Source of the DNA: Elsinoe ampelina
Taxonomy: Eukaryota
NCBI GenBank assembly: GCA_010093995.1
Contig: ML992507.1
Span: forward strand, 1,051,868 to 1,115,867
DNA length: 64,000 bases
Reading direction: 5' to 3'
Shown: positions 8,376 to 64,000 of the stretch, in pieces
Layout of the letters: the number at the start of each line of letters is the position of its first letter
Numbering within the stretch: position 1 is the stretch's first letter
The notes under the pieces: model-generated
What the model was told of the DNA's origin: nothing
What the model saw: only the letters and a program-made list of their open reading frames with translations
Database searches by the model: none
Position numbers and translations under genes: made by a program

Positions 8376-9404
8376 ACAGTTTATAGCAAGGATAATTATT
8401 CTATAAAGGTAAATAAGCAAGTAAGGTATAGGCTATAAGAGTAAATAGGAGGTACTAGCAAGATTAGTATAATTAATAAACGTAATTATAACCTTTAACT
8501 TTTAAATTTTAATTCTTAAATCTTAAGTTCTTAAAAGATATATCTACTCCTCGACTCTTAGGCACCTATAGGTACTATTAGGTAGTGTTATAAGTAATAC
8601 TATAACTAACTATATACCTAAGGCTAAGTAACACTACCTAAGGCTTAGAGAGTTACGGTTGCTAAGCTTTAGGTACTAGTATCGCTATAAGTTAGGTTGT
8701 AGGTAGCAATTCTAGTACCTAACCTAACCTAAAAACTACTCTAAACTATAAATACTCTTTCTAGGAAGGTTAAGATTAATAGAAATAGGTATAAAGGATA
8801 TAATAGTTACTTAGTTTAGATTATGCCTATTCTATTTAAATCGACTAACACTAACTAGTATATCTAATGCGAGATAGATACGAACTAGATCTAGTTAGGA
8901 TCTAGTTTAGATTAGTCACGTAATCTCGGCATTGTAGCCTAGGCTTCTAGCTGCTTTGCCCTCGATATTACGTGTGCTTTATATACTAGCTTTTCTTCTT
9001 CTTCTTCTAAGTCTTAATATCTTAATAAATAGACGTAATTAACCTCTTATCTTGCTAGTTGTAATTACTATATCGAGACTTCGAAACGACTATAACTAAG
9101 CAACGGAGCTATTAAATTATCTAGTTATTCTACTACTTACGTAACTACTAACAACTACTACTTATAAAGAATTAAAGAATTAAAGAAGAAGCTATTATAA
9201 CTGCAGTTCCCGCGTATACTATAATAGATCCTCGCTGCCGCTATATAGGTTAATACTATAAACTCTAAAGATACAAGAAGAAGGTAATAAGTTAAGTTAT
9301 AGATAACTCTTAAAGGAAGTAGGCCGCTAGCTAAAAATTTTAATATCTCCTTTGTTACGTATTAACGTTTTATACTATTTTATTTACAACTAACTATACT
9401 AAGT

Positions 9405-14878: not shown

Positions 14879-15185
14879 TGTATAATAGTGTTTAAGGGTA
14901 AACACGCTTAAGAGAAGAGATAGTAATATAAGATAGATACGAACTAGATCTAGTTAAGATCTAGTTTAGATTAGTTATGTGATCTCGGCATCGTAGCCCG
15001 GGCTTCCGGCTACTCCGCCCTCGATATTACGTGTGCTTTATATACTAGCTTTTCTTCTTCTTCTTCTAAGTCTTAATATCTTAATAAATAGACATAATTA
15101 ACCTCTTATCTTACTAGTCGTAATTAATATCTATTAGAAGGCGTATTATAAGGCTACTAAGGAGTACTTAGAGAAATAAGGCCCC

Positions 15186-19719: not shown

Positions 19720-20250
19720 ATAGTATATAAAAAAGATTATTCTTAAGCTACTACTAGTCCTAGAGAAAGAGGTTATAAAGGGAAGTAACCTACTATAAAG
19801 AAGATACTATAATTCTAGACTAAGCCTAGAAAGAAGTAGAGATTTAAGCCTAGTAGTATTTATTACAGTTTCTAATTATAGAGTAGAACTAATAGAAGGT
19901 AGCTATTACTCTCTATAAGATTTGTTACTACTAAAAGGATGTTTAATTATTATTCTATAAACTCTCCTTTTCTTACCTTATCTATAAGATATTCTAAGAT
20001 ATATAACTTACTTTTAAGGTTAATTACTAGATAGCTAATATACTTAGAGCTCTCTAAGAATTAGTAGAGGTATTTATTGTTAGATATATAGAAGGTATAT
20101 ACCTATTTAATATATATTAAAACCTTAATTAATACTTATTTATAGATATAAACCTTAACGCTATCTATACTAAGTATATTACTATTAATTATAAGGACTT
20201 TAGCCTTACTAAGTACTACTATTAGAAGTTTATAGTTAGTAGTTAGTTAA
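19720..20250 (+). pseudogene. Histone H3-like gene in hAT-2 (introns 19856-19902, 20095-20145; stop approximate)
   Basis: De-RIPped: MARKK...KKRRFKPG|TVALREIRRYQK...KLPFSRLIREI.QD...ALGALQESAEAFIV.YME|D.NLNAIHAKRVTI..KD..LA. Confidence 0.9.
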
Positions 20251-23200: not shown

Positions 23201-26200
23201 ATAGTTAACCTCGTCTAGATAGCGAACATTAGTATTACTAAGGCTAGCCTTTATAATACTATCTAATTGTACTTTATTATCTATAAGATATACCTTCTCT
23301 AACTCTTACCTTAGTACTATACTACTATAGAAGTAGAACTACCTTGTTCTTAGCTTAGCTTAGACTACTAGCATAGGCTATATTTAGACAGTTTATAACA
23401 TTTTAACTACTCTTACTATAGTATAGCACGCTACGAGGTTAATAAGTAACTCTTGCTCTAAGTTACTATTAGTATCTTTAATTACTAGTAAGCTAGGAAA
23501 GCTTACTATTAACGATATATCTACTACTAGTTTAACCTCGGGCGAATATAGAAGGTCTCTTAGTATAAGAGAGAGACGGAGTAAGCCTAAGTTAGAAGTA
23601 GAACTCTTCTACAGAGACTACGCCTACTTAAGGCACTTCCTTGTTTAACTTAAAGCCTTCTTTACTCTAGAGGGAGACAAGTACGCTAACGACGTAGCAA
23701 AGGTCCTCTATGCTAGGATACACCTTAAAGGCGCCGCCTTTAGGTAGTTTAAGCCTTATATAAGTAGCTACCTAGATAGATAACTAAGCCTAGATACAAA
23801 GGCTATCTTTAAGAGCTTTAGCATCTTCTAGGCAAAGATTAAGTAAGTCTTTAACGTATCTAATAAGAAATATATTACTATAATAAAGATCTAATAACTA
23901 TAACAACGAGGGTCTATAGCCTAGTACTATTCCTAATTCTAGCAACTCGTAATGTACCTAGACTAGGATAATAGTACTAAACATTTAGTATTCTACTAAG
24001 AACTAAGCGACTTAGTTAAAGACTAAATAATACCCGAGCTGCCCGATAGCCTATAGGAACTAGTAGACACTATAATTGCTATCGATAATAGACTTTATAA
24101 ACAACGTATAGAACGTTATAGAGAATATAAGGTAAATACTAGATATATGTGTTTCTCCCGAAACTATAGAGACTCTATAGAACTTAATATTATACATAAA
24201 GGCTGCCCCTTATAGGTATAAGGCCGCGGCCGTAGAGGAAAGTTCCTTAGTAGAAAAGAGAGAGAGAAGTATAGACGAGACAATCTATGTTTTAAGTATA
24301 AAAGACCTAGGTATCGAGCTAGAGACTACCGATAAGAGGTGCTAGCCGATAGATTACATATAATAGTTGCTAGGCTAGTAGAGAAAAAGGCTAATACTAC
24401 TATAGAAGACCTAACAATCTTTAGCGTAGGTAAGGAAACATAAAAGAAGTCTATAATAACTTAAGAGGTAATAGAATCCTCTCCGGATGTTATACTTAAT
24501 ATCTCTATAACTAATAGCGAACGATAAAGCTAACACGTAACGCTATTATAGATAGCATATTATAATAACTCTTATTATATTCACTTATTAGATAAGTAGG
24601 GATCTAGTTAGTTTCTATATAAGCTATCTAAGCGTAGGCGACTAACGAAATAGCTAGACTAGGAGTTTAACTTAGAAAAGCTCTCTATAATTAGTAGTAA
24701 TATTAACTAACCTTAGAAGGTAGTTAGTAACAACTACTAATATACAATTATCGAAATAAAGTATTAGGACGTAAGTGCTATATAATAATATAGTAACCTT
24801 ACCTTTAGCCCTTATAGCGAACTATAAGGAAAGGTATATTATATATCGCTCTAGAAATGTATAAGTTTAAATTACGAATAGTACTATACTATCTACTTAT
24901 ATAATATACTTAGAGAAGATGCTATTAGTCTTAAATATACTATAGACTTCTCGGTAATTAAAATAGATAGTACTATCCCCTATAGCTAAGTAAGAGAATA
25001 TACTTAGTATAGCCTTACTAATTGCAACTATACTAGAGGTAGTAGCGACGAAGAGAAATATAACAAAGGATATATTAAACAACTATAATATAACACTATA
25101 GATAAGGACTTATCCGACAACGATAACGACGTACTACTACTAGGCAGGCGACTTAAAGTATACCTTATAGGAATGTAGAGAAACTATATAATAATATACA
25201 CCTACTACTAGAATAGGACATAACAAGACAAATCTACATAACTTGCTTTCGTCTTTAATACTAACGCCTAGCTACACCTAGAGGAGATAGTTATACTAAT
25301 ATAGGTGTATAACACCACTTAGTATAACTAGTAGAGAATTATTGGATTTTATAGTTACTAAGGGACTTAGGCGCTAGAAGTTTACCTTGCTATATTAAAT
25401 AGCGACAAAACACAACTTGCCTAATAGATATAATACTAATAGTAGATACATATAGGAAGGAATTAGCTACTTATCTAAGGAGCTATAATAATAAAAAACT
25501 AGCTAGTTGTTGCCTAATAAGGCAAGATAACAACACTAGCTAAAGCCTTAGTATAATAAAGATCTATATGTTAAACTACTTTATACTAGAAGTCTAGATA
25601 TAAGAAAATAAGGTAAGAGCAATAATAGATTCGGGAGCTAACTATAGCTATATCTCTATAATAGTTACTAATTAGCTTAAACCTTATTAACATTAGAAGG
25701 AGTTACCTTACCTACTTACTATAGCGGATAGAACCTCTATAGGGAAGGATAGGAAAGTTACTTAGGAACTATAAAACGTTATAATCTAAATTAGAACATA
25801 CATAGAAAAACAATTAATTAATATAGTTAACATATAGTATAATATAGTACTTAGCATAGACTAGCTTTAATAACATAATCTAGACGTAGACTAGATTAAA
25901 GAAACACTTAAATTTTCTAAGTACAATTATAGAACGTAGGAAGTATAATTAGCTCTACGGATACTAACTATAAGGATAGTATAGATATAACTAATAGTTA
26001 GGGCTATCGCTAGCGTAAGTAATTAAGTACTTTCGCTAGAATATAAAGACTTTAAGGACTTATTTAAAGAAAGGAAAGGTATTATAGTCTTACTCTAATA
26101 TAAACTATAGAATTACAAAATACCTTTTAAAGAGAGTAAATCCCTAATATACTATTAAGGTCTTATACTACTATTAAAACAAGAGGAGAATATCCTTAAG

Positions 26201-28899
26201 AACTATATTAACAAGTACTTACTTAAAGGATTTATACAACTATTAAAATTACCTATTGTATATAGAGTGCTTTTTACACCTAAAAAGGATAGAATGTTAT
26301 AAATATATATTAATTACTAGAAACTTAATATACTTACTAGGAAGAATTACTATTCCCTACTAAGGATCGATAAACTTTAAGACTAACTACTTAGAGCTAA
26401 ATAGTTTACTATAATCGACATTAGGGACGCCTATTATTAAGTATAAATAAAGGAGAGTAAGGAGTAGAAAATAGCTTTTAGGATATAATAGAGTCTATAT
26501 AAGTACCTCGTTATACTCTTTAGGTTAACTAACGCTTCTATAACCTTCTAAGAGTTAATTAATAATACTCTATAAGAATACCTTAATAACTTTGTCTTAG
26601 TATATCTAGACAATATTGTTATCTTCTTAAAGACATATAATAAACATATAGGACATGTTTATAAAGTACTATAGAAACTAAAAGAAAAAGACTTACTAGT
26701 AAAACTCTTTAAGTATAAGTTTTATAAATACAAGATACAATTTCTAGGCTATATTATATCTACTAATAGCATTAGACCCGACCTAAAGAAGATTAAGTTA
26801 GTAAACAACTAGCTAGAACCTACTATAGTTAAGGAGGTTTAAGTACTACTAGGATTCTTTAACTACTACTATAAGTTTATTAAGAGGTTCTCTAAGGTAG
26901 CTATACTAATATCTAACCTTACAAAAAAGAAAACTAGCTTTATCTTTAACGAAAAATATAGGTAGGCCTTTAAGGAGCTAAAGCTTAGACTTATAATAGT
27001 ACCTATCCTAGCACTCTTTAATCTAGACTAATAAGCACTACTAGAGATAGATACTTTAGACTTTGTAATAGAAGCGTATCTAGCATAGAAGGACGTAGAA
27101 GAATAACGCTACTTAATTATATACTACTTACGAAAAATGACTAGACCTAAACTTAACTATAATATATATAATAAGGAGTTACTTATAATTATAGAAGTAT
27201 TCCGTAAGTAAAGAATATACCTAGAAGGAATAACCTTACTAGTATAAGTCTACACTAACTATAAGAACCTTTTATATTAGATAATAACTAAGGTTCTTAA
27301 TAGACAATAGGTGTAATAGTTAGAAACACTTATAAGCTATAACTTCTAGATCTACTATGTTAAGGGATTAGAGAATAGCGGAGTAGATACTCTTAGCTGC
27401 CGGCTAGATTACTTAAAAAATATAATAATAATAGAGGCCTCTATACTAAAGTAGCAGGATAGCGCTTTAGTCTATAAGTACCCGAAGGTAAAGTAGTTAT
27501 ATAGTCTTACCTAGGAGCTTACGTAAGAACAGAAAAAAGAAGTTATTTAAATATACTATAATAACCTAACGGTAGGACATAGCAGGATTAATAAGACTAT
27601 TAAACTTATTATATAAAACTACCTCTAGAAAGAACTCCGAAACAATGTTAAGACGTATATTACTATATGCAATATATACTATAAGTTTAAGCACTTACGA
27701 CATAAGCTATATAGCTTACTATAACCCTTACTACTACTAGATAAACTATAGCAATTAGTTACGATAGACTTTATAGGACCTCTACTACTATTAGAAGAAC
27801 CTCTTATAGGTGTAAAGTATAATAGCATTCTAGTCCTAGTAGATAGGTTTATAAAGTATTACTACTTTATACTATATAAGATAATAGCAACTACTAAGGA
27901 TATAGCCTTTGCCTTTCTCCGAATAATTGTTTTACGATATAGAGTACTATAAGACCTAATAACTAACAGGGATAAGCTATTTACGTTATAATTCTAGCAA
28001 TTATTTATAGACCTACTAGAAGTTAAACATAAGCTATTAACCTCCTTTTATTTATAAACGAACAGATAAACTAAATAAGTAAATTAAGTACTAGAGTAGT
28101 ACCTACGATGCTACCTAAACTATAAGTAAGACTCCTAGGTAATGCTATTACTACTCGTAGAGCTTGCTATTAATAATAGAAAGTTAGTAAATGGAATTTT
28201 ACTATTCTATATAAACTATAGAATACACTCGGATCTATACTATAACATACTCGGAATTAAGCTAATATCTAAGGATACTAATATATTAGTAGCTAATATT
28301 AAGAAACTATATAACTAGCTATACTACGATATAGTATTTATATTATAAAGAATAGTAGAGTTTGCTAACTAAAAGAGAATTGCAGGACTAATTCTATAGG
28401 AGAGAGAGAAAGTTTACCTCCTTAGTAAAAACATTAAAATAAAACAACTAAGTAAGAAACTTAACTATACTAAACTAGGACTCTTTAAGATCCTAGAAAA
28501 GAAAAACAAAAACGTATATAAACTAGAACTACCTAGATACATAAGAATCTACCTAGTCTTTTATGTATTACTATTAGAGAAAGCACTATAGGACGTAGTA
28601 CCTAGACCTATCGAACTAGATAAAGAAATATAAGAGCTATAGTATAAGATTAAAAGGGTTTTACGCTATAAATTTATAAGGGGAAAGCGTTACTATCTTA
28701 TCTACTAGAAAGAATATTAGTATAGTAAGGCAATATAGGAACTAGAGAAACACCTTACCTCGTAAGTAATCCTAGATTACTAGACCGAAAACCTATCCTA
28801 AGTAAACTAACTAGGTAGGCCTAACGCTACTAATACTAAACAAAAATAAGAATGCCTAAGGAAGACTACCTAGCTAATAGAAGTACCCTAATTATTACT

Positions 28900-30406: not shown

Positions 30407-33400
30407 ACTATATCTCTACTATTATAACTCCTATTACTATTTACGACCTCTATAACTACTCTTATACTATTACGCTTCGTGCCTTTATCGACACTAGTAC
30501 GCTTATTAGCGCCGTAGTTAATTATAACGTCCTTAATAAGCTAAAGAGTTTTAGCTACCCCGTAGCGTTAGCTAGCCCTATTTAGCTTTAAGCTTATAAT
30601 AGTATTCTAATAGAATAAGTTATATATAGTGTCTCTCTTACTACTACTGTCTCTAGTAAGCTAAATGCTCTTACTACTTTTCGTATTATAGATATTAGCC
30701 GTTTTAACATTATTCTTAGCCTTAGTTAGCTTAAGGCTAATAGGGCTACTATCGACTATAAATATAGCTAAGTTATATACAAAGAAGATCCTATACCTAT
30801 CGTTATTAAGTAGGAGCTACTATAGCTAATTAAAAGACTAGGATCTAGATCTAAGCCTAGCTCGGATCTAGGAATCTAGCTCGGTAAAATCCCTATTCTA
30901 GTTTAGAACTAGTTTAGTTCTAGTTTAGCTCGCTAACTAGATTCTAGCTTAGCTACTAAGTTAGGACGGGCTAGACTATATTAACTACTAGCTCTTAGGT
31001 TAAACTCTAAGCTAGATTAGGGAGAGTTTAAGCTAGTCTCCTATAGTACTTAGTTAATATATAAGTTCTTCTATATACTTGCCTACGTAAGTAACGCTAA
31101 ATAAGAAGGACTAACTATTACCTTTATTAGCGCTGTCGCCTTTATATTAGTAGCTAAATACTAAAAGAACAAGGTATTTATAATTTTAGTAAAGAACATT
31201 AAGGATTACTACTAAATAGTCTCCGAGCTAGAACTAGACTCTATAGTAGTTCTTCTAGAGGAGCTATACAAATTTGCTAACGTCTTCTCTAAAGAGTAAT
31301 CTAATACGCTCCCCCTATATCGACTAGATTTCGATAACTGTATTACTCTTAAAGATAGTGCTAAATTACTACGTATAGAGCCTTTATACTACCTATCTCC
31401 TAAGAAGCTCGACATAGTAGAATAGTTTATCTATAAGCACCTCGATAAAGGCTTTATTATACTAAGCTTAGCTAGCTATTCCTTACCTATTCTCTTCGTT
31501 TATAAGCTAGGTAAAGAGCTTCGCCTCTACGTTAATTACTATAGTCTTAATAAGGTAACTAAGCGAGATATCTATCTACTACCCCTTATCGAGGAAACGC
31601 TTATATACGTAAGTAAGGCTAAATAGTTTAGTAAGATTAACATATATTAAGCCTTCTACTGCCTCTATAACTCTACTAATAGTAAGGACCTTACTATATT
31701 CTCTATATACATAGGTAACTTTAAGTAGTTAATAATACTATTTAGTCTTACTAACGCCTCTATAGTGTAGTAGAGGTTTATAAATTACAACTTTGTTAAT
31801 ATACTAGAGCGCTTCGTGTTAATCTATCTTAATAATATTCTTATTTACACTAATAGCACTTATAGAGAGCACGCCGAGCATATTAAGCTAGTACTCTAGT
31901 AGCTCTATAAATTAGGCCTAAATGCTAATATTAAGAAGAGTAAGTTCTACCTAATAGAGGTAAAGTACCTCGGTATTATCGTTAGCTAAGATAGAGTTAA
32001 GATAGATCCTAAGAAGGTAGAAGCTATATAAGTATAGAAATAGCTAGCCCCTAGTAATACTACTTAGGTAAGGAGCTTTATTAGCTTCTATAGCTACTAT
32101 TGTCGCTTTATTAAGAGATTTAGCACTATCGCTAAGCTACTAAACGATCTACTTAAGAAGAATACTATACTATAGAACGATAAGTGTATTACTATGTTTA
32201 ATTATATAAAGTATACTATTATAAGCGCGCCTATCCTTATATACTTTAATCGCTCGAAATAGATAGTCCTTAAGATAGATACCTCCGACACTACTACTAC
32301 TAGAATTCTGTTATAATATAATAAGTCTAACATTCTCTAGCCTATAGCCTTTTTTAGTAAGTCTATAAACAAAGCCGAACTTAACTACGCTATCTACGAT
32401 AAGGAGCTACTAGCTATCGTCTAAGCCTTTAAGGAATAGGCCCCTAAGCTTATAAGTACTTAATCCGATAAGGCTATCTACGTCCTTACTAACTACTAGT
32501 CCCTAATACACTTTATAAAGATATAAAAGCTATTACGCCGCTAGGTATACTAGGCCCTCTACCTCGCGTAGTTTAACTTTAAGATTATATATAGGCCTAG
32601 TGCTATAAACGGTAAAGCCGATACACTTATAAGAAGGAATAGAGACGTACTACGCTTAAAGAAAGACTCTAACCTTCGCTAGACGCTATTACTCTATAAG
32701 GTGCTTAACTAGCGTATTATTAACGAACTAAATCTAGGTCGCATCTAAACTAGATTACTAGCTCGAGCTAAACTAACACCTAGTTTAGTAACTAGTTTAT
32801 TACCTATATCGGCGCCTATTTTAGCTACCGAACTAGGTATCTATATAGTACCTATCTTAGCTATAGAAGAGCCTTTACCCCTTTTCGATAAGGTAGCTAA
32901 GGCTAACTTACGAGACACTAAGTTCGAATTAGCTCGAGGCATCTACTATATAATAGGAGTCTTCCTAAAGTGGAAATAGCTACTACTAACCGATGTTACT
33001 ATTAGTAAAGGGATGTTATAGGTTACTAGTTAGCTGTTTATACTATAATCGATAGCTATAAAGGTTATCTAAGAAGTCTATGCCTTAAAGGACTATATAT
33101 ATGCTAGAGCTACTAAAACAGCTACTATAATTAAGACTACCTTCTATATCCCGAGTTACAATAATAATGTTAAGAGGTTCGTTACTAACTACTACAACTA
33201 TAAGCATTTAAAGGCCTACTACGGCTTACTAGCTAGCCTCCTATTACTATTGCCTATTCCGGAAAGGCTCTAGTAATACATTACTATAAACTTCGTTACT
33301 AGCTTACTCTTAGTAGATAGCTATAACATAGTACTCTATATTATCGATTGTCTAACTAAGGAACGACACTTAATCCTATATTTCTCTAGAGATAGAGGCA

Positions 33401-34375
33401 CCTTAGCATTTAAAATAGCTAAGCTACTATTCTTCTACGTATAGAAACTATATAGCCTACTAGATAGTATTACCTCCGACTACGGCCCTTAGTTCGTTAG
33501 CGACGTATAGAAGAGGCTCTACTAAATCCTAAAGATTATAGCTAAGCTATCTTTAGCCTACTACCTCTAAATAGACAGCTAATTAGAAGTTATAAACTAA
33601 GAGTTTAAACGAGTTATCTATTTATATATAACACATTTTAGTAACTAGACTCTAGTTCTACTAGTTATAGAATTTTCTATAAATACTAACTCCTCGGAAA
33701 GTACTAAACTATTACTATTTAAGGTAATAAGAGGATATAAGCTAAGGATAAGCTTCTAGCCCCCTTCCGATGTACTATTAACTAGAGCTAAGCTAAATAA
33801 GGCCGACATTTATACACTTACTAAGTAGCTAGAGAAAGCACTAGCTATTACTAAGTCTAACCTCGCTATTGCCTAGTTACGAATAGTAGAATAAGCTAAT
33901 AAACGTCGCTAGCTAATAGAGTTTAAGGTAGGCAATTTAGTTTAGTTATTAATAAAGAACCTCTAGCTATAGAGTAATCTAAAGCTACTACTAAAGCACG
34001 TCGGTCTATATAAGATCTTAAAGAAACAATTAAGGCTATTATATAAGCTAGAGCTCTTACTAGCGCTATAATAAATTTATCTAGTGTTCTATATTGACCT
34101 ACTTACTAAGTATCTAAATAACTCTCTACTAGGATAAGCCTTTAAGGAACTACTACTAGTAGAGGTCAACGGTAAAGAGAAATACAAGGTTAATAATGTA
34201 ATTAATATATATAGGCTACGCAGAAAACTAGTTACTTATATAAGCTAGAAGAGCTATTCTAAGGATCTTACCTAGTAGCTAATTAATAATCTTAAAGGAG
34301 CTACTAACGTACTACGCGACTATCTAGACTAGTATATAGATAAGCTAAGGCCGAAATAGATCGATAAATAATATA
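30407..34375 (+). pseudogene. pol: Pol of Gypsy A2
   Basis: Colinear with 10870-14878; FIDTS(G)A-like motif at ~30484; RT, RH, IN and chromodomain motifs. Confidence 0.92.
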
Positions 34376-34631
34376 TAATAGTATTTAAGAGTAAATACAC
34401 TTAAGAGAGAAGGTAGTAATATAAGATAGACACGAACTAGATTCAGTTAGGAGTTAGTAGTTAGTTTAGATTAGTCACGTGATCTCGGCATCGCGGCCCG
34501 GGCTTCCGGCCGCTTCGCCCTTAATATTACATATACTTTATATACTAGTTCTTCTTCTTCTTCTTCTAAGTCTCGATATCTTAACGAATAGATATAATTA
34601 ACCTCTTATCTTGCTAGTCGTAATTAAGTAG

Positions 34632-50705: not shown

Positions 50706-51290
50706 ATAGCTCGTAAGAAGCAAGTAATACCTCTAAAAAGGGCAAAGCTAAGGAAGTAAGGCGCTAAGAAAACCGCTACTAAAAAGCCTACTATAGGTAA
50801 TTATATAACAAAATTTAGACTAGTATTAACTAGACAAATTCGCTAAGTAAAGAGCTATAGGTTTAAGCTAGGTAGTTAGTTTCTTATAGTAAATTCTTAT
50901 AGTCTTATATCTAATATAGTATAGCTATTGCCCTCCGAGAGATTTATTACTACTAGAAGATAACTAAACTTCTTATATATAAGCTTCTCTTCTCCTGTGT
51001 TATTTATAATATTATATAAGATGTTAAGTTAATACTTATAAGTAGAGATTTGCACTTTACGCTAGATACTATTAAGTATCTCTAGGAAGTAAGTAAGGTA
51101 ATACTAGTAGAATATTTCGAAGGTATATTAACTATATATTTAGAATATATAATACCTTATACTAATAACTATAGTAGACTATAATCTTAACACTATCTAT
51201 GCTAAGCGTTATACTATTATATAGAAAGACTCTTAGCTTGCTAGGAAATATTATAACAAGTACTACCTACTTGCTTTCTCTAATTAGTAA
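50706..51290 (+). pseudogene. Histone H3-like gene in hAT-3 (introns 50875-50924, 51123-51177)
   Basis: De-RIPped MARKKQ...KTATKKP...HRFKPG|TVALREIRRYQKTTELL.RKLPFSRV.R.I.QDVK.....RDLRF...AI..LQEASEA.LVEYFE|D.NLNAIHAKR.TIMQKDSQLARK; gccctccgagagatt (ALREI) survives unmutated. Confidence 0.93.
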
Positions 51291-54200
51291 GACCTCTCCT
51301 CTATAATACTATAAGAATAGACTATAAGAAATAGGTAGGTTTATTTTTATATAGACTAGACTATTAAATTTCCTTTCTATAGACTTATTATAATACTAAA
51401 GTACAGTGTAGTAGCTATAGTCGCCTTAAAGCCTAACTAAGGCGTAGTGCTATAACGTAGTATAATACTAGAATTTAACCCCGGTACTAATTCGGTATAG
51501 TGCTATTATAGTATAGTATAGCGCTATTATAGTATAGTGCTATTCTTACTTAACTATAGTATAGTGCTAGTACTAGTGTAGCTCGGCGTAGTACTAGTGC
51601 TAGTACTAATATAGTAGAGTACGGAGCTAGTGCTATTTAGTTTAGCACCGGGTGCCGACCCGCTAAGAACAGCTCTATACTAGCACCGGGGTCGGCCTTC
51701 GGCCGCTCTAACCCCGCCCTAATAGTTATACTAAGAAATTGTATCTTATATTTATAAAACTTACACTTAGAGAGCTTTATAAGTAGGTCTTTTTCTTTTA
51801 GTTTTTATAGTACCTTATAAACATATCCTATATATTTATTATATATCTTTAAGAAGACTATAATATTATCTAAGTATACTAAGACAAAGTTATCGAGGTA
51901 TTCCCTAAGAGTGTTATTAATTAATTCTTAGAAGGATATAGGTGCATTAGTTAGGCTAAAGAGTATAATAAGGTACTTATAGAGTCCTTATCTAGTTCTA
52001 AAAGCTGTCTTCTATTCCTTACTGTCCTTTATCTATATTCGGTAATAGGCATCTCTAATATTAATTATAGTAAACTATTTAGCTTTAATAAGTTAATTCT
52101 AAAGTTTATTAATCCTCGGAAGAGTATAATAGTTCTTTCTAGTAATTATATTAAGTTTCTAGTAATTAATATATAGTTATAGTAACCTATTCTTCTTAGG
52201 TGCGAAAAGTACTTTATATATAATTAGTAATTTTAATAGTTGTATAAACCCTTTTTGTAGGTACTTATTAATATATTTCTTAAGGAAGTCTTTCTTCTTT
52301 TTCGATAATAGTATAAGACCTTAGTAGTGTATTAGGGATTTTCCTTCCTTAAAAGGTATCTTGTAATTCTATAGTTTATATTAGAGTAAAGCTATAATGC
52401 CTTTTCTTTCCTTAAATAAGTCCTTAAAGTCTTTATATTCTAGTAGAAGTACTTAATCGCTTACGCTAGTAATAGTCCTAACTATTAGTTATACCTATAC
52501 TATTCTTGTAGTTAGTATCTATAGAGCTAATTATACTTCCTACGTTCTATAATTATACTTAGGGAATTTAAGTATTTCTTTAATCTAGTCTACGTCTAGA
52601 TTGTGTTATTAAAGCTAGTCTATACTAAGTACTATATTGTACTATATATCTACTATATTAATTAATTGTTTTTCTATATATATTTTAATTTTAATTATAA
52701 CATTTTATAGTTCCTAAGTAACTTTTCTATTCTTTCCTATAGGGGTTCTATCCGCTATAGTAAGTAGGTAAGGTAACTTCTTCTAATATTAATAAGGTTT
52801 AAGCTAATTAGCAACTATTATAGAGACGTAGCTATAGTTAGCTCCTAAATCTATTATTACTCTTACTTTATTCTCTTATATTTCGACTTCTAGTATAAAG
52901 TAGTTTAACGTATAGATCTTTATTATATTAAGGCTTTAGCTAGTGTTATTGTCTTATCTTATTAGGCAATAACTAGCTAGTTTTTTATTATTATAGCTCC
53001 TTAGATAAGTAGCTAATCCCTTTCTACACGTATCTACTATTAGTACTATACCTATTAGGCTAGTTATGTCTTATTGCTGTTTAATATAGTAAGGTAGACT
53101 TCTAGCGCTTAAGTTCCTTAATGACTATAAAGTTTAATAATCCCTTACTAATTATACTAAGTAGTATTATATACCTATATCGGTATAACTATTCCCTTTA
53201 GATAGAGCTATATATTAGCGTCGAAGACGAACGTAGGTTAAGTAGATTTATCTTATTATATTCTATTCTAGTAGTAGATATATATTATTATATAATTTCT
53301 CTATATTTCTATAAGGTATGCCTTAAGTCGTCTGCCTAGTAGTAGTACGTCGTCGTTGTTAAATAAGTTCTTATTCGTGTTATTATATTATAGTTATTTA
53401 GTGTATTCTTCGTTATATTCCTCTTCGTCGCTACTGCCCTTAGTATAGTTATAGTTAGTAAGGCTACATCGAGTACATTCTCGTACTTAGCTATAGAGAG
53501 TAGTACTACCTATTTCGATTACTAAGAAGTCTATAGTATATTCGAGACTAACGGCCTCTTCTCTAAGTATATCGTGTAAGTAGATAGTGTAGTACTATTT
53601 ATAATCTAGATTTGTGTATTTCTAGAGCGATATATAATATACCTTTCCTTGTAGTTTACTATAAAGGCTAAAGGTAAGGCTACTATATTGTTATATAGTA
53701 CTTATGTCCTAATACTTCGTTTTAATAATCGTATATTAGTAGTTGTTACTAACTACCTTCTAAGGTTAGTTAATGTTACTACTAATTATAGAGAGTTCTT
53801 CTAGGTTAAGCTCCTAGTCTAGCTATTTCGTTAGTTATCTACGCTTAGATAGCCTATATAGAAACTAACTAGATCTCTACTTATCTAACAAGTAAATATA
53901 ATAAGAGTTATTATAATATACTATCTATAATAGCGTCGCGTATTAGCTTTATTATTTGCTATTAGTTATAGAGATATTAAGCGTAATATCTAGAGAGAGT
54001 TCTATTGCCTCTCGAGTTGTCGTAGACTTCTTCTATATTTCCTTACCTACGCTAAAGGTCGTTAGGTCTTCTATAGTAGTGTCGGCCTTTGTCTTTACTA
54101 GCCTAGCAACTATTATATATAATCTATTAGCTAGAGTAGTTTTTAGGTTAGGTTAGGTACTAGAATTGCTACCTATAACCTAATCTATAGCGATACTAGT

Positions 54201-54499
54201 ACCTAAAGCTTAGTAACTATAACTCTCTAAGCCTTAGGTAGTGTTACTTAGCCTTAGGTATATAGTTAGTTATAGTGTTACTTATAATACTACCTAATAG
54301 TACCTATAGGTGCCTAAGGGTCGAGGAGTAGATATATATCTTAAGAACTTAAGATTTAAGAATTAAAATTTAAAAGTTAAAGGTTATAATTACGTTTATT
54401 AATTATGCTAATCTTACTAGCACCTCCTATCTACTCTTATAGCCTACGCCTTACTTACTTATCTACCTTTATAGAATAATTGTCCTTACTATAAACTAT

Positions 54500-55043
54500 C
54501 TAATTGTCCTAGTTATATGTATTAAACTTTATATAATAGCGATAAGCAAGCTATAAATCTTTCTAGTTAATAGTAACTTACTTAGTATAAATATAATTAA
54601 GGTTCATGTCTAAGAATATTAGTATCTATAATAGTATTAAATTTAAATAATAGATACCTTCTATATACCTAACAATAAATGCCTCTATTACTTCCTAAAG
54701 TACTTTAAAAGCTTTAAATTAGATATAAAAGCTTTTATCTTAATAAACATAGTCTCTAATAATCTTATAGATAAGGCAGCTAAAGGGAAGCTTATAGTAG
54801 AGAAGTTTAGTTAACTTCTAGTAGTAATAAATCTCTTAGAGGATAATAGCTATATAGTATTAGTAATATAATATAATAATTAATTATAATAATTATACTA
54901 CTAGCCTTAAACTTGTTCTTCTTTCTAGGAGCAATAGTTGTCTTATAAGGTTACTTAGTAGTAGAAGCCTTAGGTCTACTAGACAACTTACTCTTATAAC
55001 TATAACTATAGGTTAGTACTATAGTACCTCTCTTAGAAGGCAT
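54500..55043 (-). pseudogene. Histone H3-like gene in hAT-1 copy 2
   Basis: Reverse complement of 7832-8375; retains ATG CCT TCT AAG start, the GT of intron 2 and ATG AAC CTT (MNL). Confidence 0.92.
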
Positions 55044-55681
55044 AGTTACTATTACTACTAAGGATAGAGTCTTAGGAGGTACTTATAATATAAAGTAATC
55101 TTATAGTAGTAAAGGTAAGGTAGTAGAAGGCATAGAAAGTAACAAGGTAGACATAGTAGTAGTATAAAGAAAGATAAGTAGAAAGAGAAGAGGTAAAAGA
55201 AGTAGAAGAAGAGAAATACGTAATAAGAAGAGAAATGTATAATAATTTAGTAGCTAGTAATAGCATAGCTAACAATAGGAATATAATATTATAATAGAAA
55301 TATAAAATTAGCAAATTAAGAATATATAGTATATAGAATACTTACTTATTATAATATTATTTATAATAGTAAAGTATATAATATTAGATTTGTTTAAACG
55401 CTTAAAAGAAGAGAAATCTAGACATTATAGAGTATTAATAATAAGTACGTAATAATCTAGTATAATAATACAATACTAATTTAGTATACTATAATTCTTA
55501 AAAACCTTATATTTTATATTTTATATTCTACTCTAGCTACCTTATTATTACTTTATATATAGTAGGAAGCTATATTACTCTCCTCTATTCTTCTTCTTCT
55601 TCTATTAACTTCCTTTCTTCTTGTCTCTATTACCCTTTTATTTCTACCCTCTTAAGTTTAACTTTTATATCTTATTTTACT

Positions 55682-56989
55682 ATAGTAACCTCTCTAGATA
55701 CTCCTATAGCTAATATACCTTCTAATACCTCTCCTAGTAGCTCTCCTAAGATTAAGAATAAGTTTAATAAGTTTAAAACTATAATAGAGATAATTATTAT
55801 AGCGTTTTATTATAAGTATTAAGCTAATAGGTATAGGGCTTTAGGTCTAAGTAGGCTAAAATTAAATACTAGATCCTTTAGCATAGTTAAGGCAGCAAGG
55901 CACATTACAGTTATCTAACTAGTTTTAAAGCAGGTTTAAGTAAGTCTTTAAAGTAGAATATTTAAAATATTATATACTAAGATAAAGATACTTAATAGTC
56001 AGCTAAGGTTAAGGCACTTAAAGTAGCTAGAGATGCTAATTATAGCGCAAAGAGAAATTTGCTTAAGAAGTTTAATATAAATACTTAAGTCTAGAACCTT
56101 AGTAAAGAAGCAAAGGTAAAACTCCTTATAGAAAAGATTAAGAAAATAGAGTAGCGCTATTTCGACGCCTAGTAAAGCTATATAATTATACTACTATATT
56201 ATTACGTTTAACACTAATAGATTATAGATAAATAGCTATCTAGCAAGTTTAGAAAAGTCTATATTAAATAGTAGTATATTAGAAAATTTGCTACATGTTA
56301 AAAGTATATAGAAGTCCTTATAAAGGCAAAGGTAGCTTATACTACTAAGTCTAGCAAGGAGAACAATATATTAAGAGTAGCTAAGTAGATATATAGTTCT
56401 AGCAGAATTCTCGAGAAGCTTAAGTATAAGATCTATATAGCTAGCGCTACTAAGCTTACTATTAATAAAGGTACTAACGAGAATACTAAGAAAAAGTACT
56501 TAAAGTTTGTCTAGAAACTTAGTAAGGAGAGTAGGCTTACTACTATCTCCGATCCTAACTAGTAGTAAGTTCCCTATTATTATTACATATTATTATTACA
56601 TTAGTATACTAATAAATAGTAGAGCTTATAATTCTACGCCTCTAGCTAAGTATTAACTACTCGAGCTAATCTATCTTATAGATAAAGGTAAATATATAAA
56701 GCCTAATAATAATAACAAGTGTAAAGAAGTATACGAGCTAGACTATAACTCTAAGATTAAGAAACTAGCTAATAAGTATAAGATAGACAAGTAGTATATA
56801 GAGTTTAAGGAGTTTTCCTCTAATAAGAATAAGATTATTAATAAGAGAGAGAGGGTTAAAGTAGAGAGTTCTTTAGAGAGTAGAGATAAGGAGAAGAATA
56901 ATAATAAGAATAATAATAAGAATAATAATAAGAAAGAAAATAAGGAAATAGTCGATACTAAGGAAGATAAATTTACTAGCTTTAACTAG
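55682..56989 (+). pseudogene. Cargo ORF2 with acidic tail (hAT-1 copy 2)
   Basis: Reverse complement of 5859-7193; LKLNTGS at ~55856; probable introns near 56172-56220 and 56566-56619. Confidence 0.65.
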
Positions 56990-57268
56990 TGGATTTTCTA
57001 TACTATAATTAACTACTAAGTAGTTTAATCTATAGTATAGTCTAGCCCTTTTATAGATTTAAGTTTTATAACAAGATCTTTTCCTATATAGCTACTATTA
57101 TTATTTATGCTTCTAATTGTCACCTCTAACAATAGTAAATTATCTATATTATTACTTCTAATAATAGATTTCTATTACTATTGTTGCTATAAATAATAGA
57201 AGGTACTAAATATATACGCTATCTCGTTCCTATTTATTCTTCTTTCTAAAACCTCTCTTTCTTATTAT

Positions 57269-57790
57269 TATAGCTTCTTATATATAACTCTATCTCGACC
57301 TAGGAGATCTAATCCCCTACTAGCCTTATACTATAACTTGTAGTAACTATACTAGGCTACTACACTTACGTTAGTATAAAGCTTATATCTGCTATATAAC
57401 TAAGTAATTTATCAATAGTAAGGAAAGGTAGACTACTTATATCTATAATAACAATAGAAGCTCTAAACTTTGCTATAAGGCCTATCGCTCTTATAATACC
57501 CCTTATAACTTTATTAGTGTTCCTAATTTAATACTACTACATTCTCTAATAAGTATTAGTATAATAGCTCCTAGACTAATAAAATTTTTAACCTTATCGA
57601 CATATAGTATATACTTAATTATTACTATCTTAATCTTATCTAGGATTAGATTACAATCTTCGATATACGCTATAGCGTTAAACACTAGTAAGACAAGCTA
57701 GATAATTCTAAATCCTAAGGATCTTAATAGTTCTAATTCTTCTAGTAACTAGTTTAGTAGTATAATATAAATAAAGCATCGGCGGGCTAA
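57269..57790 (+). pseudogene. Putative six-Cys zinc-cluster-like gene (hAT-1 copy 2)
   Basis: Aligns to 45052-45578 (ctctatctcgacctaggagatctaatcc; ttacgttagtataaagcttatatctgc; ends gcatcggcgggctaa). Confidence 0.58.
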
Positions 57791-58064
57791 TAGCTTTAGT
57801 AGGTTTTTTATAATATAGATATGTCTTTAATTTTAAAAATTTTCTACTCTACCCTAATATAGATATACCTTTAATTTTAATTATGTTACCTATTCCTTAG
57901 CCCCTATATAGTATAAGTCTAGCCTATAGAAATTGATATACCTCTTGCTTTAAAGTTTCTATAGTATAGTATAGAATTTATTATTACGTATTATAAACAC
58001 ATTAACAAATATTCTATAATAAGTTATCTACCTTTATTAAATAATATAATCTATACTAATTAAC

Positions 58065-60726
58065 ATGTCTAAAGCTTTTAACTTTAAGTCGGTACTTAAC
58101 CTATAACTTAGAGATACTACATATTTCTCTCTAGCTATTCTAGTAGAATTATATAGCTTTATAATCTCCGCTTAGAAAATTAGACATAATAGTAAGATAT
58201 AACAATTATAACTCCTTAAATACTTACTTTTTTAACCTAGTAAGAGATCTAAGGATTAACTTCTATAACAAGCCTAGAAAGACTAGTAGAGTTAAATAAT
58301 TATAGTATCTATATATAGAGAAGATACGAAAAATGTACTAAATTAGAATTCTAAAGTACGTTCTAGAGGTCTATAGGCAAATATTATAGAAGCTACTAAG
58401 ATTTATAATAGAGAACTATAAGTTATTTATAACAGGTATAGTAATATACTTACTTATTCTACTTACTATTGTACTAGCAATAAAGTAATAGAGAAATATC
58501 TTAAGTCCTAGAAATATACTATAGTTGTTAAGTACCGCTATAAGTAAAGCCCTGCCTAAAAAGCCCTTAAGTAATTATAATAGTATATAAAGAGCATTTA
58601 CTAAATTGTCTCTCTATTCTCTACTAATACCTTCTACTATAAGCTTGTTTATGTAGTTACTAACTATAACTAGTCTTTCTACATAGTTAAGTATTCTACC
58701 TTTAGCTAATTCCTCTACTTCCTTTAACCTAATATTACTATACCTAGCTAGACTCTTTTTTAAGTAACACTAGTAGTATAATTTAAAAGATTATAAAAAT
58801 TGCTACTCTCTAACCTCGGTAAGAACATTAAGCTTTTAATAGCGTTAGATAGATAGTCTACTAATAACTACTTAGGGTTTATTATAATTAAAAGCTATTT
58901 TATTAATAACTAATAGTAATTATAAGAGTAGCTTCTAGAAATAACACTTCTTCGAGGTTGCTATACTAGTAAAGCTATAGCAAATAAAGTAATATAGGTA
59001 CTAAAAGATATATCGGTTAAGCAATAACTACTTATAGTTATAGCAGATAATATATTAAATAATAGAATACTCCGAGAGTCTCTTAAAAGAAGCCTAGGTA
59101 TACTAGATATTAAGTAGAATACAAAGAAGAATATAATTCTATACCTAGTATATATTATTAATCTTATTATATAGGACATTATTAAGTATCTAAAACTTAA
59201 GATAAGCGAAGAGATTAATATAGTAGAGAGGTTATAAAACTACTATATCTAGAATATTATAATATTAGTCTCTATCTCGAATTTACTATAGAAGGTATAT
59301 AATATTTATTATATTATTTTATTACGTCCTAATATCGGCAAGCTCTATATAATATATATTAAAATTAATAGTTCCCTATAATAGTTTAAATAATTTATAG
59401 ACCTCTAGAAGTATCTACTACCTAAGAAGAGGTACTAAGTTATATATAATATTAAGACATGCTAGAATTTAACATATAATATATATAAGCGAGTATTAAA
59501 GCTTAAACCTTTTATTAAAGATTAGCTCGAGAATAAGACTATGCTCTAAGTACTAAAGACTTCTTCTAAGGTATTAACATCTAAACTGCTCTCTAACATT
59601 AACAACTATAACCTTACTAAGTTATTACTTAATCTAAATAAGTAGTAGTATCTTAAATCTGTTATAGTAATACTAGAGAACTTTAAGAAAGTAATAACAT
59701 AGCTAAGTACTAGTAGCTAACCTCTTCTCTAGCATATATAGACAATATATAATATACTCTTTAACTTCTTAGATAAAATCGAAAAGGGCCTAATTAGCAC
59801 TAAGAATTATAACAATCTACCTATATAGCTAGCTACTATATAAAAGGTAGTAGTAAAGGGATAAGAGAAGCTTAAGAAATACTATATATAAACTAAGGAT
59901 AGAAAGGGCATACTCTATAACTATATAACAATTCTTAACCTCTCTAAGAAGCTTATAGTATATAATATAAGTGCCTATAGTCTTTCTAGTAAGTAGTAGC
60001 TAATAACACTTAGGATATACTTAGGAACCTTACTATAAAGACGACTATTATAAGGAGTTCTTATAGTACCTTCGTTAGTATAATAAGATAGACCCCTTAA
60101 TTGCTTTACTAGCCTCTACCTCTAAGCTATTACGTTACTAGTAATAAGACTATTTTAACTAACTAAAACAAAAGAAGTAAAGTTATACTCTATTACTATA
60201 AAGTAATAGTCTATGCTTCTTATTTATTCTCTCGAAGTATACTATAGTTAAAGAAGGTAAGGACTACCTTATAACACTACCGGTCTATATTTAGAAACTT
60301 AATATCTTATAGTAGTAGAAAGAGAAGAAGGAAGAATATTTATTACTATTATATATAGTAAAAGATATTCTAGTAATCCTAATTATAGGGGTTAGAGTTA
60401 AGTAAGTATTTAACATTACAAAGAATATTATTAGTGTATAGAGGCATAAATTAGTAGCCTAAACTATTCGGTAGCTTATAATATTAAAGTATAAGCTTAA
60501 AGTAGCCTTACTATTAGAACGGATTAATATAGAACTAGAGACAGAGGATAAGGCTACTAATGCTAACAATTTGCTTAAATTATTATTAAGGACTAATATA
60601 AATCAACTAGACAATATTACTATAGTACTAAGCTATAGTAATAATAACTACTCTAAATTAGAGAGAGAGAGAGCATAGAGAGGTTAATAGTATCCTAGTA
60701 GAAAGCGTTAGCGGATTTACTAGCTA
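58065..60726 (+). pseudogene. hAT transposase of hAT-1 copy 2 (ends approximate)
   Basis: ATG at 58065; dimerization domain at ~60300-60500. Confidence 0.88.
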
Positions 60727-63700
60727 GATTATATTTGTACTTCTAGTATAATTTATATATTTTGCTTACTACCTCCCCTTACGTAATAAAGTAGTATAAT
60801 AAAGTTAGGCCTAAAAATTTATAAGGTATAGTAACGCGCTAAGCTATAGAGTAAGCGCTTTAACTACTAACCTATTAGGTACTATTAGGCAGGTACTAGG
60901 TTAGGTACCCCCCCCCTAAGAGCGATACTATAACTATATACTAACTCTACCTACCTTAGTATAGTACCTAACCTAGAGTAACCCCTCCCTACTAAGCTTT
61001 TATACCTAACCCCTACCTAACGTAGTACTATATCTACCTAAAAACTACTCTACTATTAGCTAGCGCCTCTTATTAGTAGTCCCTAGCCCGATGCCTAGGT
61101 CTTTTACACTTAAAATATAAATTGTCTTATCTATACTTCTCTCTCTCTTTTCTACTAAGGAACTTTCCTCTATAGCTATAGCCTTATACCTATAAGGGGC
61201 AGCCTTCGTATATAGTATTAAGTTCTATAGAGTCTCTATAGTTTCGAAAGGAACATATATATCTAGTGTTTGTCTTATATCCTCTATAACGTTCTATATG
61301 TCGTTTATAGAGTTAGTTATTAATAGTAATTATAGTATCTACTAGTTCCTATAGACTATTAGGTAGCTTAGGTATTATCTAGTCTTTAACTAAGTCGCTT
61401 AGTCCTTAGTAGAATACTAAGTGTTTAGCGCTATTATCCTAGTCTAGATACATTACGAGTTATTAGAACTAGGAATAATACTAGGCTATAGACCTACATT
61501 GTTATAGTTGTTAAATCTTTATTGTAGTAATACGTTCCTTATCCGACACGTTAAAGACTTACTTAATCTTAGCTTAGAATAGCCTAAAGCTTTTAAAGAT
61601 AGTCTTCGTGTCTAGACTTAGTTACTTGTCTAGGTAGCTTCCTATATAGAGTTTAAACTACCTAAAGGTAGCACTCTTAAGCTATATACTAGCGTAAAGG
61701 ACCTTAGCTATATCGTTAGTATACTTATCTCCTTCTAGGGCAAAGAAGGCCTTAAGCTAGATAAGAAAGTGCCTTAGATAGGCGCGGTCCCTATAGAAGA
61801 GTTCTACCTCTATCTTAGACTTACCTCGTTCTTTGCCTATACTAATAGACCTTCTATATTTACCCGAGGTTAAACTAGTAGTAGATATATCGTTAATAGT
61901 AAGCTTTCCTAGCTTACTAGCGATTAAAGATGCTAATAGTAACTTAGAGTAAGAGTTACTTATTAACCTCGTAGTATACTATACTATAGTAAGGGTAGTT
62001 AAAATATTATAAACTGTCTAAATATAGTCTACGCTAGTAGTCTAAGCTAAGCTAAGAACGAGGTAGTTCTACTTCTATAGTAGTATAGTACTAAGGTAAG
62101 AGTTAGAGAAGGTATATCTTATAGATAATAAAGTATAATTAGATAGTATTATAAAGGCTAGCCTTAGTAATACTAGTATTTACTATCTAGACGAGGTTAA
62201 CTATAATATTACTTATAAAGGAGAGTATAGTATATATCTTATGTCGTGTTATAATTACCTTAAGTAATTATAAGTAGTAGTTACTCTAATTACTCGTAAG
62301 CGAAGTAATCTAAGATAGTTAGTTCCTCTACTTCCTTTTATGCTTCCCTAGCGTAGCCTAGCCACGTCTCTAATTAGCTTGTCTATAGCCTAGCTACAAG
62401 TTTATTATAAAGTCTTTCTCGTTATTCTTCTACTAATTAAGTACTTTAAATCCTAGTATACTCTAGACTAGAGGGATATTAAGGTAGTTCTTGCTCTTCT
62501 AATAAGTAGTTTAAGAACTCTCCTATTAATCCTAGATTACTAAGCTAATATTAGACTAGAAGCTAAAGCTCGTCTAGGGAGAGGTAAGCTATATAGGTAA
62601 CTAAGGTCGATAGAACTAATTATCTTTATCTTTAAGTAGGGTTATAATACTTAGAGTCTTAGGTAGACTATCTAGAGAAGGTAGTTTACTATTATAGTAA
62701 CTAAGGTAGTTAAGAAATTACTTATAATACTTAGCCTTATTAGATTTCTCCTAGGTGTTATTCTATAATATAATTAGCTTACTATAAGAATATATTTATA
62801 AGCTATAAACCTCGTAGGGGGTTAGCTTTTATATAGAGTCTAAGACTATACTATAATTAAAGAGGTACTCTCTCTTGTTATTAGTATAATTATAGTACTT
62901 TAATAATTTATCTCGACCGTGCTCTACTATAAGTCTAACTACTTTAGGCTAAGGCTTATTATTATCTCTCTCCTTGTCTATAGTGCTATTCTCTATCTTA
63001 TTAAGGAAGTTAAATAGACAATTATATATTAACTAGATATATATAATTAGTAGGTAGCTAATAGTACTTAACTAAGTAGTTACTACCTTAAAGTTCTTAA
63101 GCATCTTTATTACTAGCTTAAGGTATAACTACTCTATACTATTAAGCTAAAGACGTTTAAGATCCTTATAATCTAGATTACTAGTATTAGTACTAACTAA
63201 GTTAGGTCCTATACTAGTAGAACTCTTTATTATAATCTCCTATTTAAGCTATTAGTCGATTAATAGTCTAAGCTTAAGACTACGCTTATACATATTAAAG
63301 GTTAAGTTCTACTATGTCTTAACATCTTAAATAATAGCCTTATACTCTCGAGGTATTATAGCTTATTAAAGAGTTATAAACCTCTTAAAGTATTAAGGTA
63401 ATTAATCGATAGTAATATAGGTTATATAGAGCTAGGAATTAATTAGACTATAATTAAAAACTATAATTAAAATACTAACCTTACGAAGTAAGTTTAGTAC
63501 TAAAAGTTTAATAGAGATCTTTCTTAAGTACTACCTTTTAAGCCTAGTAGCTTATTTATCCTCCTTAGTAGTCTTAAGGTCGAGGTACTTAATAATATTC
63601 TATATAACAAGATTAATAATATATAAGGCATAGAATAGTGTTTTCTTATATACTCTATGTAATACCTACCTACCTAAGAAGCCTTTATACTATCTTATAT

Positions 63701-64000
63701 AATATATAGTTGTTACTTATATTATTAGCAGTAATAGCAAGGAGTCTGTCCTAGAGATTATAGTACTAGAGTGTCCGTACGAGTTTAGTAGCTATATTAT
63801 AGCCTATGTATTAACCCCGAAGTAGTACTATATCTAATAATTATTCCTAGAGCTACTATTAGTTATTAATATAATAAGCTTTAATTGTAATAAAGCTTAA
63901 ATAATTATTTATAGACTAGCTATTAAGGGCAATTAAGACCTTTATTGTCTTATTAAGATCTTATAATAACGTTCGATAGAGATTTTTAAATTTATTATTA

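Follow-up and report, generated by a model that had tools for sequence, protein, structure and literature searches.

ORF2, at positions 55682-56989 of a 64-kb stretch of the Elsinoe ampelina genome (contig ML992507.1, positions 1,051,868 to 1,115,867; the whole of this stretch is referred to as the window), is most probably a dead copy of an accessory, 'central' gene of a hAT DNA transposon that also carries a gene for a histone H3-like protein; on this reading, the two genes are paired because both reside in that element. We put the probability of this assignment at roughly 85%, a figure that covers the identity and the state of the gene and not a histone-binding role. The gene would serve the transposon rather than the host and would be the counterpart of the central open reading frame (ORF) in the H3L-hAT element of Pyrenophora tritici-repentis. 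An earlier note on this DNA had regarded ORF2 as a candidate dedicated histone chaperone, always head-to-head with the H3-like gene; a host histone gene pair is not supported, given that both genes lie inside a hAT transposon with a transposase, terminal inverted repeats (TIRs) and a target-site duplication (TSD). Within the window, the outcome is an ordinary one, namely, a transposon gene present as four dead copies in a nest of repeats that repeat-induced point mutation (RIP) has degraded.

The transposon that holds ORF2 (element A; Table 1) is delimited by short TIRs and an 8-bp TSD, the boundaries of a hAT element, and contains an H3-like gene on the minus strand and then, both on the plus strand, ORF2 and a hAT transposase. 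In a paralogous repeat (reverse complement of 24310-24385), both flanks of element A are joined across a single CTATCGGC, an empty site indicating that element A was inserted as one unit. The host of this insertion is another RIPped repeat (51734-54134 and 61053-62221), of which the paralog at 23186-26745 is uninterrupted, and the target octamer is less mutated in the paralog (CTATCGGC) than at element A (CTATTAGC). Next to the left TIR are GGTTAGG repeats, which resemble the GGGTTGGG subterminal repeats of an intact relative, locus L001 (see below).

Both signs of RIP, a CpA-to-TpA bias and transition-only divergence between copies, are present in the window repeats. The G+C content is 24-37% across the whole window, and the dinucleotide ratios are RIP-like, with TpA/ApT of 1.90 and (CpA+TpG)/(ApC+GpT) of 0.20, the usual thresholds being >0.89 and <1.03, respectively. 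Stop-to-stop frames of at least 90 amino acids (aa) number eight in the entire 64 kb. Comparison of the window with itself resolved a nest of repeats, in which one pair (1788-8743 versus 61057-54132; 6958 bp, 93% identity) contains two copies of ORF2, denoted A (55682-56989) and B; these two differ by transitions only, with 0 transversions over 230 aligned codons.

Intact relatives of ORF2 were reached through a chain of profile searches. A profile (A1) of the four RIPped window copies over exons 2 and 3 was compared using HMMER with 1.84 billion representative proteins, yielding two matches at E <= 1e-3, including P0003, a 105-aa unnamed singleton (E 2.2e-4); the second match, P0002 (267 aa, internally repeated), was discounted as spurious. 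A profile of P0003 and window exon 3 recovered P0004 and P0005 (a partial hypothetical protein of Stemphylium lycopersici). No longer relatives were found from P0003 alone, and the merged three-protein profile was required: searched against longer proteins, the profile of P0003-P0005 matched 3 of the 7998 scored candidates, namely, P0006 from P. tritici-repentis (366 aa, E 4e-34), P0007 from Pyrenophora seminiperda (356 aa, E 1e-32) and P0008 from Parastagonospora nodorum (357 aa, E 4e-18). A cluster look-up added P0009 from S. lycopersici (353 aa). The annotated fungal homologs are KAI0573131.1 (P. tritici-repentis), RMZ71905.1 (P. seminiperda), KAH5706829.1 (P. nodorum) and RAQ93879.1 (S. 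lycopersici). When aligned back to the window, the intact proteins were colinear with all four copies of ORF2 (A-D), the best E values being 6e-6 (P0006 versus copy A) and 1e-5, and their alignment to the spliced model of copy A covers its full length.

In two intact metagenome relatives, the genomic context is that of element A. A scan of metagenome contigs by protein alignment located three loci: L001 (5628 bp), un-RIPped and near-identical to the S. lycopersici protein; L002 (1388 bp), with the central gene only; and L003 (5902 bp), un-RIPped and 39% identical to P0006. Both L001 and L003 have flanks. The upstream flank holds an H3-like gene (Pfam Histone, E 3.5e-22 and 1.6e-13) on the strand opposite to the central gene, and the downstream flank a hAT transposase (Dimer_Tnp_hAT, E 3.4e-19 and 4.6e-20) on the strand of the central gene itself, so that the three-gene order and the strands of the window element are repeated in both relatives with flanking DNA. 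The intron positions of ORF2 are likewise shared with the intact central genes at all three loci (3/3: L001, L002 and L003). Not all un-RIPped copies are intact, however: in L002, a single in-frame stop (KEWEQ*RDG) interrupts the central gene at ~790-800.

ORF2 consists of four exons and three introns and is degraded by RIP, and no copy is an ORF. Indeed, no ATG-initiated ORF of at least 60 aa was found on the plus strand between 54000 and 59000. The single frame of ~1.3 kb read earlier in copy A contains 21 stops in 436 codons; it is right for the first 99 and the last ~370 bases (exons 1 and 4), but exons 2 and 3 lie in the adjacent frame. In the corrected spliced model, 21 of the 377 codons are stops (14 TAG and 7 TAA), as expected from the action of RIP on CAG, CAA and TGG. 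Because exon 2 lies in the adjacent frame, the (K/R)LNTGS motif (55859-55876) that the earlier note had singled out turns out to be an out-of-frame reading; the true frame has AKIKYxIL, aligned with a conserved E-x-D-E-I block of the intact relatives. RIP has probably turned the start ATG into the ATA at 55682, and the donor of intron 1 is a RIPped GTAATA. The position of this intron equals that of L001 intron 1, and copies C and D retain GTATT/GTAATT...CTAAC...TAG. In the annotated P0006, residues 37-52 contain MVIITVYNNSTHLYAQ, which is intron 1 read through in frame, and this segment is probably a gene-model error, as these residues correspond to intron 1. An alternative intron at 55941-55997 (GTAAGT...TAG) was rejected because the intact proteins align straight through it, the true first intron being the one in Table 1.

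Exon 2 is colinear with residues 53-165 of P0006 and P0007, with YSYLTSFK (55906-55929) aligned with RGRPTSLK of the intact proteins, and exon 3 is the part that found P0003 and then P0004 and P0005. Further blocks match along the gene (intact proteins versus copy A): SAKYQL versus SAKRNL, EWL versus KxL, GGxLEKIMR versus SRILEKLKY, KPYI versus GKYI, SDECEE(E) versus NNKCKE and, at the C-terminus, FEGFSD-stop versus FTSFN-stop. Exon 4 formerly encoded an acidic tail. The AAT/AAG-rich 3' end described previously is confirmed, as is its derivation from GAT/GAG by RIP: in the last 95 residues, the intact proteins have 34-42% D+E, 4-9% K+R, 1-5% N and 8-12% aromatic residues and end in DFEGFSD, and the tails of the four window copies have 14-17% D+E, 19-26% N and 21-26% K, with D-to-N and E-to-K changes visible in the motifs.

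The four copies of ORF2 in the window were compared by blastp, using the exon translations of copy A (stops as X) against the six-frame translation of the window with stops as X. Copy B is 91.6% identical to copy A at the nucleotide level over 1335 columns, and the sole length difference between the two ORF2 regions is an (AAT AAT AAT AAG)n microsatellite in the tail, which is 27 bases longer in B (5862-5960) than in A (56870-56940). Copies C and D represent a diverged subfamily with 29-37% identity to A over exons 3 and 4 (E 1e-7 to 1e-11). Copies A, B and D show the H3-like/ORF2/transposase order; in copy C, which adjoins other repeats, the H3-like gene and ORF2 are present but no contiguous transposase. 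A few hundred bases past the H3-like gene of copy C, at 20851-23003 (+), there is a 5'-truncated transposase (from residue 162 of the L001 transposase onward) in the opposite element orientation; this arrangement reflects either an inverted H3-like/ORF2 module or two truncated elements that abut each other. All four copies are pseudogenes: the homologous ORFs reported earlier are real as copies and lie where they were placed, but none is open. Each of the four does face an H3-like gene in divergent orientation, as had been observed, and 'always head-to-head' holds for 4/4 copies; these are, however, not independent associations, because all four belong to one transposon family.

A Pfam search with six-frame translations of element A (stops as X) gave only two sub-threshold matches, neither of them over ORF2. 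The H3-like gene matches Pfam Histone weakly (E 0.11) and the H3-like exon of L001 with 44% identity (E 6e-18). The window H3-like genes and that of L001 have a common intron position after (Y/F)(F/I)EG and a common C-terminal LA-x-(R/K)-YY extension, which we take to be a derived feature when set against canonical H3. Introns are retained in the transposon-borne H3-like genes at two sites, in the tail after KPGS and in the fold after (Y/F)(F/I)EG; the fold intron is in-frame in L001 and in window copies A-C. In the transposase of element A, Dimer_Tnp_hAT (PF05699; ~60295-60492) remained below the cut-off (E 0.024; 14.9 bits versus 21.4). The window transposases match that of L001 (E 1e-35 to 1e-44), homology over the transposase region being seen at E values of 2e-10 to 5e-44, and by this sequence homology the hAT dimerisation domain (PF05699, E 3.4e-19 in L001) can be attributed to them.

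To gauge selection, differences per codon position (1/2/3) were counted between intact elements. For the central gene, the values were 0.21/0.19/0.44 (L001-L002) and 0.40/0.35/0.68 (L001-L003); between L001 and L003, those for the H3-like fold were 0.33/0.24/0.60 and those for transposase exon 1 were 0.37/0.29/0.62. Between the window subfamilies, transversions, which are insensitive to RIP, are also commonest at position 3 (39/39/63 of 195 codons for C versus D). All three genes thus carry the codon-position signature of purifying selection, having evolved as constrained protein-coding genes while the element lineages diverged.

The intact central-ORF proteins are ~355 aa long. An acidic N-terminal stretch, predicted to be disordered, is followed by a (K/R)GRPT(N/S) motif with basic flanks and a K/R/E-rich helical middle that includes the conserved block GGxLEKIMRxxYxxGLxKL...F(D/E)SKxxKxEW. 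The (K/R)GRPT(N/S) motif is found, as a single copy, in all four full-length proteins (P0006-P0009) and in L003, whereas copy D apparently has none. We take it to be AT-hook-like, given the R-G-R-P core and the basic flanks, although such proteins usually have several copies. In the AlphaFold2 (AF2) model of P0006, helices extend across residues 93-270 and the remainder is disordered. No match to a known family or fold, chaperone families included, was obtained for the central-ORF protein in sequence searches and in searches with this low-confidence model; the idea of a conserved gene devoid of a recognised domain is therefore upheld, the gene being conserved in the intact relatives and Pfam giving none above the cut-off. 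The ESM Atlas returned nothing usable for P0006 and P0007 (scores <= 0.76; template-modelling (TM) scores <= 0.25).

Several observations weigh against our assignment or its functional side. On the homology side, the first link (P0003, E 2.2e-4) is modest taken alone, the RIPped copies are only 20-27% identical to the intact proteins, and the intact elements with flanks number two (L001 and L003). Intron 2 of copy A is without a clean splice pair, and its boundaries are uncertain because no GT...AG pair preserves the frame. Element B has the TIRs of element A, but the octamers that flank it, AGTAAATA and AACTATAA, do not form a clean TSD, even allowing for RIP transitions. The correspondence of P0006 with the published central ORF is drawn from species, size and layout. 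As for function, family, fold and structure searches gave no support, and acidic tails are not specific to chaperones. Pfam had nothing above the cut-off for P0006-P0008 (best Elongin_A, 18.4 bits versus 29.8). A sequence search of the PDB gave one match at E 0.14. The AF2 model of P0006, built from a 5-row alignment, was poor, with a mean predicted local distance difference test (pLDDT) score of 55.7; the Foldseek check, proposed in the earlier note for the de-RIPped protein, was run on this low-confidence model and gave 0 PDB matches at E <= 0.001, and the top VIA-align score for the same low-confidence model was Z 6.6, with generic helical hairpins as the partners.

What the central gene might do for the element can be stated only tentatively. 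The most likely single role, though itself less likely than not, would be that of a chaperone-like chromatin accessory factor that binds histones, including the H3 variant of the element itself. The acidic tail would bind the histones, and the basic AT-hook part would contact DNA. A functional link between the H3-like gene and ORF2 stays plausible, since the two were co-retained under purifying selection in diverged intact elements.

A possibility that we hold with slightly less confidence is that the protein is an architectural, HMGA/HMGB-like cofactor of transposition, with the AT-hook-like motif and the basic helices binding and bending AT-rich or subterminal DNA of the element, the acidic tail playing a regulatory part and the H3-like gene being a separate passenger. 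The motif with basic flanks, recurring in 4/4 full-length proteins and L003 and aligned with YSYLTSFK in copy A, is what such a cofactor would be expected to have, the selection on the central gene is in keeping with it, and HMG-type proteins likewise have basic helices in the middle and an acidic tail after them. However, there is one hook-like motif only, missing, as it seems, from copy D, no HMG or AT-hook match was obtained in Pfam at E <= 1 for P0006-P0008, and the co-retention of the H3-like gene under selection is left unexplained.

Going beyond a chaperone-like role of ORF2, the H3-like and acidic-tail genes together might constitute a transposon-encoded chromatin module, that is, a private H3 variant with its own histone-binding deposition factor, kept by a hAT lineage under purifying selection with the transposase while its subfamilies diverged deeply. 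We consider this rather doubtful; what points toward it are the shared gene order and strands, the shared intron positions of both genes and the derived H3 C-terminus. If true, H3 would have been captured once and be useful to the element, as opposed to the repeatedly and independently transduplicated passenger of the literature.

That ORF2 is itself a passenger, a second host gene captured (transduplicated) with H3 and devoid of a role for the element, is unlikely. The element family has already been described, in the available parts of two papers, as gene-capturing (PMC3538342, PMC6710886), but a widespread host homolog did not emerge: the 3 full-length matches among 7998 candidates are all from Pleosporales, several of them on contigs of 2-17 kb. 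Furthermore, the frame, the three intron positions and the position-3-biased divergence have been kept between elements that are 43% identical in this protein, a pattern that an unselected passenger would not be expected to show. The reading of a dedicated histone-chaperone gene of the cell, paired with an H3 variant gene that is also cellular, would account for the divergent orientation and the acidic tail but is very improbable, given that the genes reside with a transposase in TIR- and TSD-bounded, multi-copy, RIP-destroyed transposon copies and that all four copies are pseudogenes. It is equally improbable that ORF2, which lies directly upstream of the transposase on the same strand, is the N-terminal part of one long transposase gene, for in L001 the central ORF ends with TAA after FEGFSD and ~400 bp of non-coding sequence precede the ATG of the transposase, and FEGFSD is the C-terminus of all four annotated fungal proteins. 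The remaining probability falls to some other transposon function.

Elsewhere in the window, several other repeat families with 77-92% identity between copies occupy the remaining sequence (1-1508, 8861-10873 and 15845-17831; 10866-15127 versus 30407-34627; 26736-28800 versus 43885-41821). Two transposase-bearing segments, 62406-64000 (-) and 21281-22877 (+), share 94% identity but reach only ~65% with elements A and B; they form a second pair within the diverged subfamily, and a younger one. The former extends past the right edge of the window, where its ORF2 and H3-like gene would lie.

Table 1. Coordinates of element A, its genes and the related copies (window positions unless a locus is named; 'earlier frame' is the single frame read previously in copy A)
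Feature	Position	Strand	Remarks
Element A (hAT DNA transposon)	54132-61052		6.9 kb; TIRs, TSD and empty site
Left TSD copy, 8 bp, CTATTAGC	54124-54131		same octamer at 61053-61060
Left TIR, 17 bp, TAGAGTAGTTTTTAGGT	54132-54148	+	identical to reverse complement of 61036-61052
Right TIR, 17 bp	61036-61052	-	pairs with left TIR
Right TSD copy, CTATTAGC	61053-61060		matches left octamer; site known from empty paralog
H3-like gene, element A, RIP-degraded	54527-55043	-	histone-fold part 54835-54527; start near 55043
ORF2 copy A	55682-56989	+	inside element A
ORF2 exon 1	55682-55780	+	earlier frame; 33 codons, no stop; precedes intron 1 as in L001-L003, C and D
ORF2 intron 1	55781-55836	+	phase 0; donor ATAATA; CTAAT branch site; TAG acceptor
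ORF2 exon 2	55837 to ~56169	+	frame adjacent to earlier one; 111 codons, 12 stops
ORF2 intron 2	~56170-56227	+	16-residue gap versus intact proteins, at L001 intron 2 position; splice sites blurred
ORF2 exon 3	~56228-56564	+	adjacent frame; 111 codons, 7 stops; IYSSSRILEKL... aligned with GSGGILEKIMR...
ORF2 intron 3	56565-56619	+	GTAAGT...CTAAT...TAG; phase 2; position and phase as L001 intron 3
ORF2 exon 4	56620-56989	+	earlier frame; 122 codons, 2 internal stops; N/K-rich; ends FTSFN-stop
hAT transposase, element A, RIP-degraded	58125-60489	+	start approximate; homology to L001 transposase
Transposase segment matching L001 exon 1	58605-59294	+	35% identity, E 2e-35
Transposase segment matching L001 exon 2	59343-59963	+	28% identity, E 7e-23
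Transposase segment matching L001 exon 3	60253-60489	+	37% identity, E 2e-10
ORF2 copy B	7193-5862	-	inside element B (1792-8743, inverted); 82-89% identical to A exon translations
ORF2 copy C	~19380-18113	-	diverged subfamily; faces H3-like gene at 19929-20228 (+)
ORF2 copy D	~50330-49055	-	diverged subfamily; H3-like gene 50939-51266 (+); transposase 48600-46382 (-)
H3-like gene, intact element L001	326-860	-	
H3-like gene, intact element L003	~389-914	-	

Acidic-tailed chromatin proteins include histone chaperones with acidic, aromatic-anchored stretches as well as HMGA/HMGB. The central-ORF protein resembles them in its long D/E tail with interspersed F, Y and W and in its basic region with a GRP core, but differs in lacking a sequence or fold match to such families. 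In the literature, where the relevant works were PMC3538342 and PMC6710886 only, the available parts of these papers were not found to describe the four-exon structure, the RGRP motif, the acidic, aromatic-studded tail or the selection signature of this gene. Taken with homologs in very diverged elements and with the selection that the H3-like gene and the transposase show as well, these features are what this analysis adds. They turn the co-occurrence of the two genes into something that can be tested, namely, whether a DNA transposon supplies both a histone variant of its own and a partner protein to handle it.

The closest published system is the H3L transduplicating hAT element of P. tritici-repentis, which, according to the available part of its description, is 5.6 kb long and has a central ORF with no known function (PMC3538342), for which that part gives no sequence features. 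L001, at 5628 bp, has the same gene layout, and P. tritici-repentis has a protein homologous to ORF2, P0006; the window copies differ in being 6.9 kb long, RIP-destroyed and ~20-27% identical to the Pleosporales proteins. In Mycosphaerellaceae, AT-rich, RIPped, H3-carrying hAT elements with 8-bp TSDs and many dead copies have been reported (PMC6710886), and the window element is like them in all these respects. As far as the available text goes, however, that family is ~9.5 kb long in Pseudocercospora fijiensis and carries H3 as one or two retrocopies that lack introns, with 'no other domains' identified (PMC6710886), whereas in the window element the H3-like gene retains the intron position of L001 and a third gene is recognisable. 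The consensus termini given there, Pfi TAGACCCCGTAG... and Czm TAGAGGTTAGAA... (PMC6710886), differ from the window terminus TAGAGTAGTTTTTAGG, and a search of the published hAT consensus sequences for the window TIR gave no terminal match. The authors of that study, in the part available, regard the H3 capture in Pyrenophora as an independent event (PMC6710886). The window element shares all three genes with the Pleosporales type, in contrast to the Mycosphaerellaceae family, and this comparison bears on whether histones were captured once or several times by hAT elements in Dothideomycetes.

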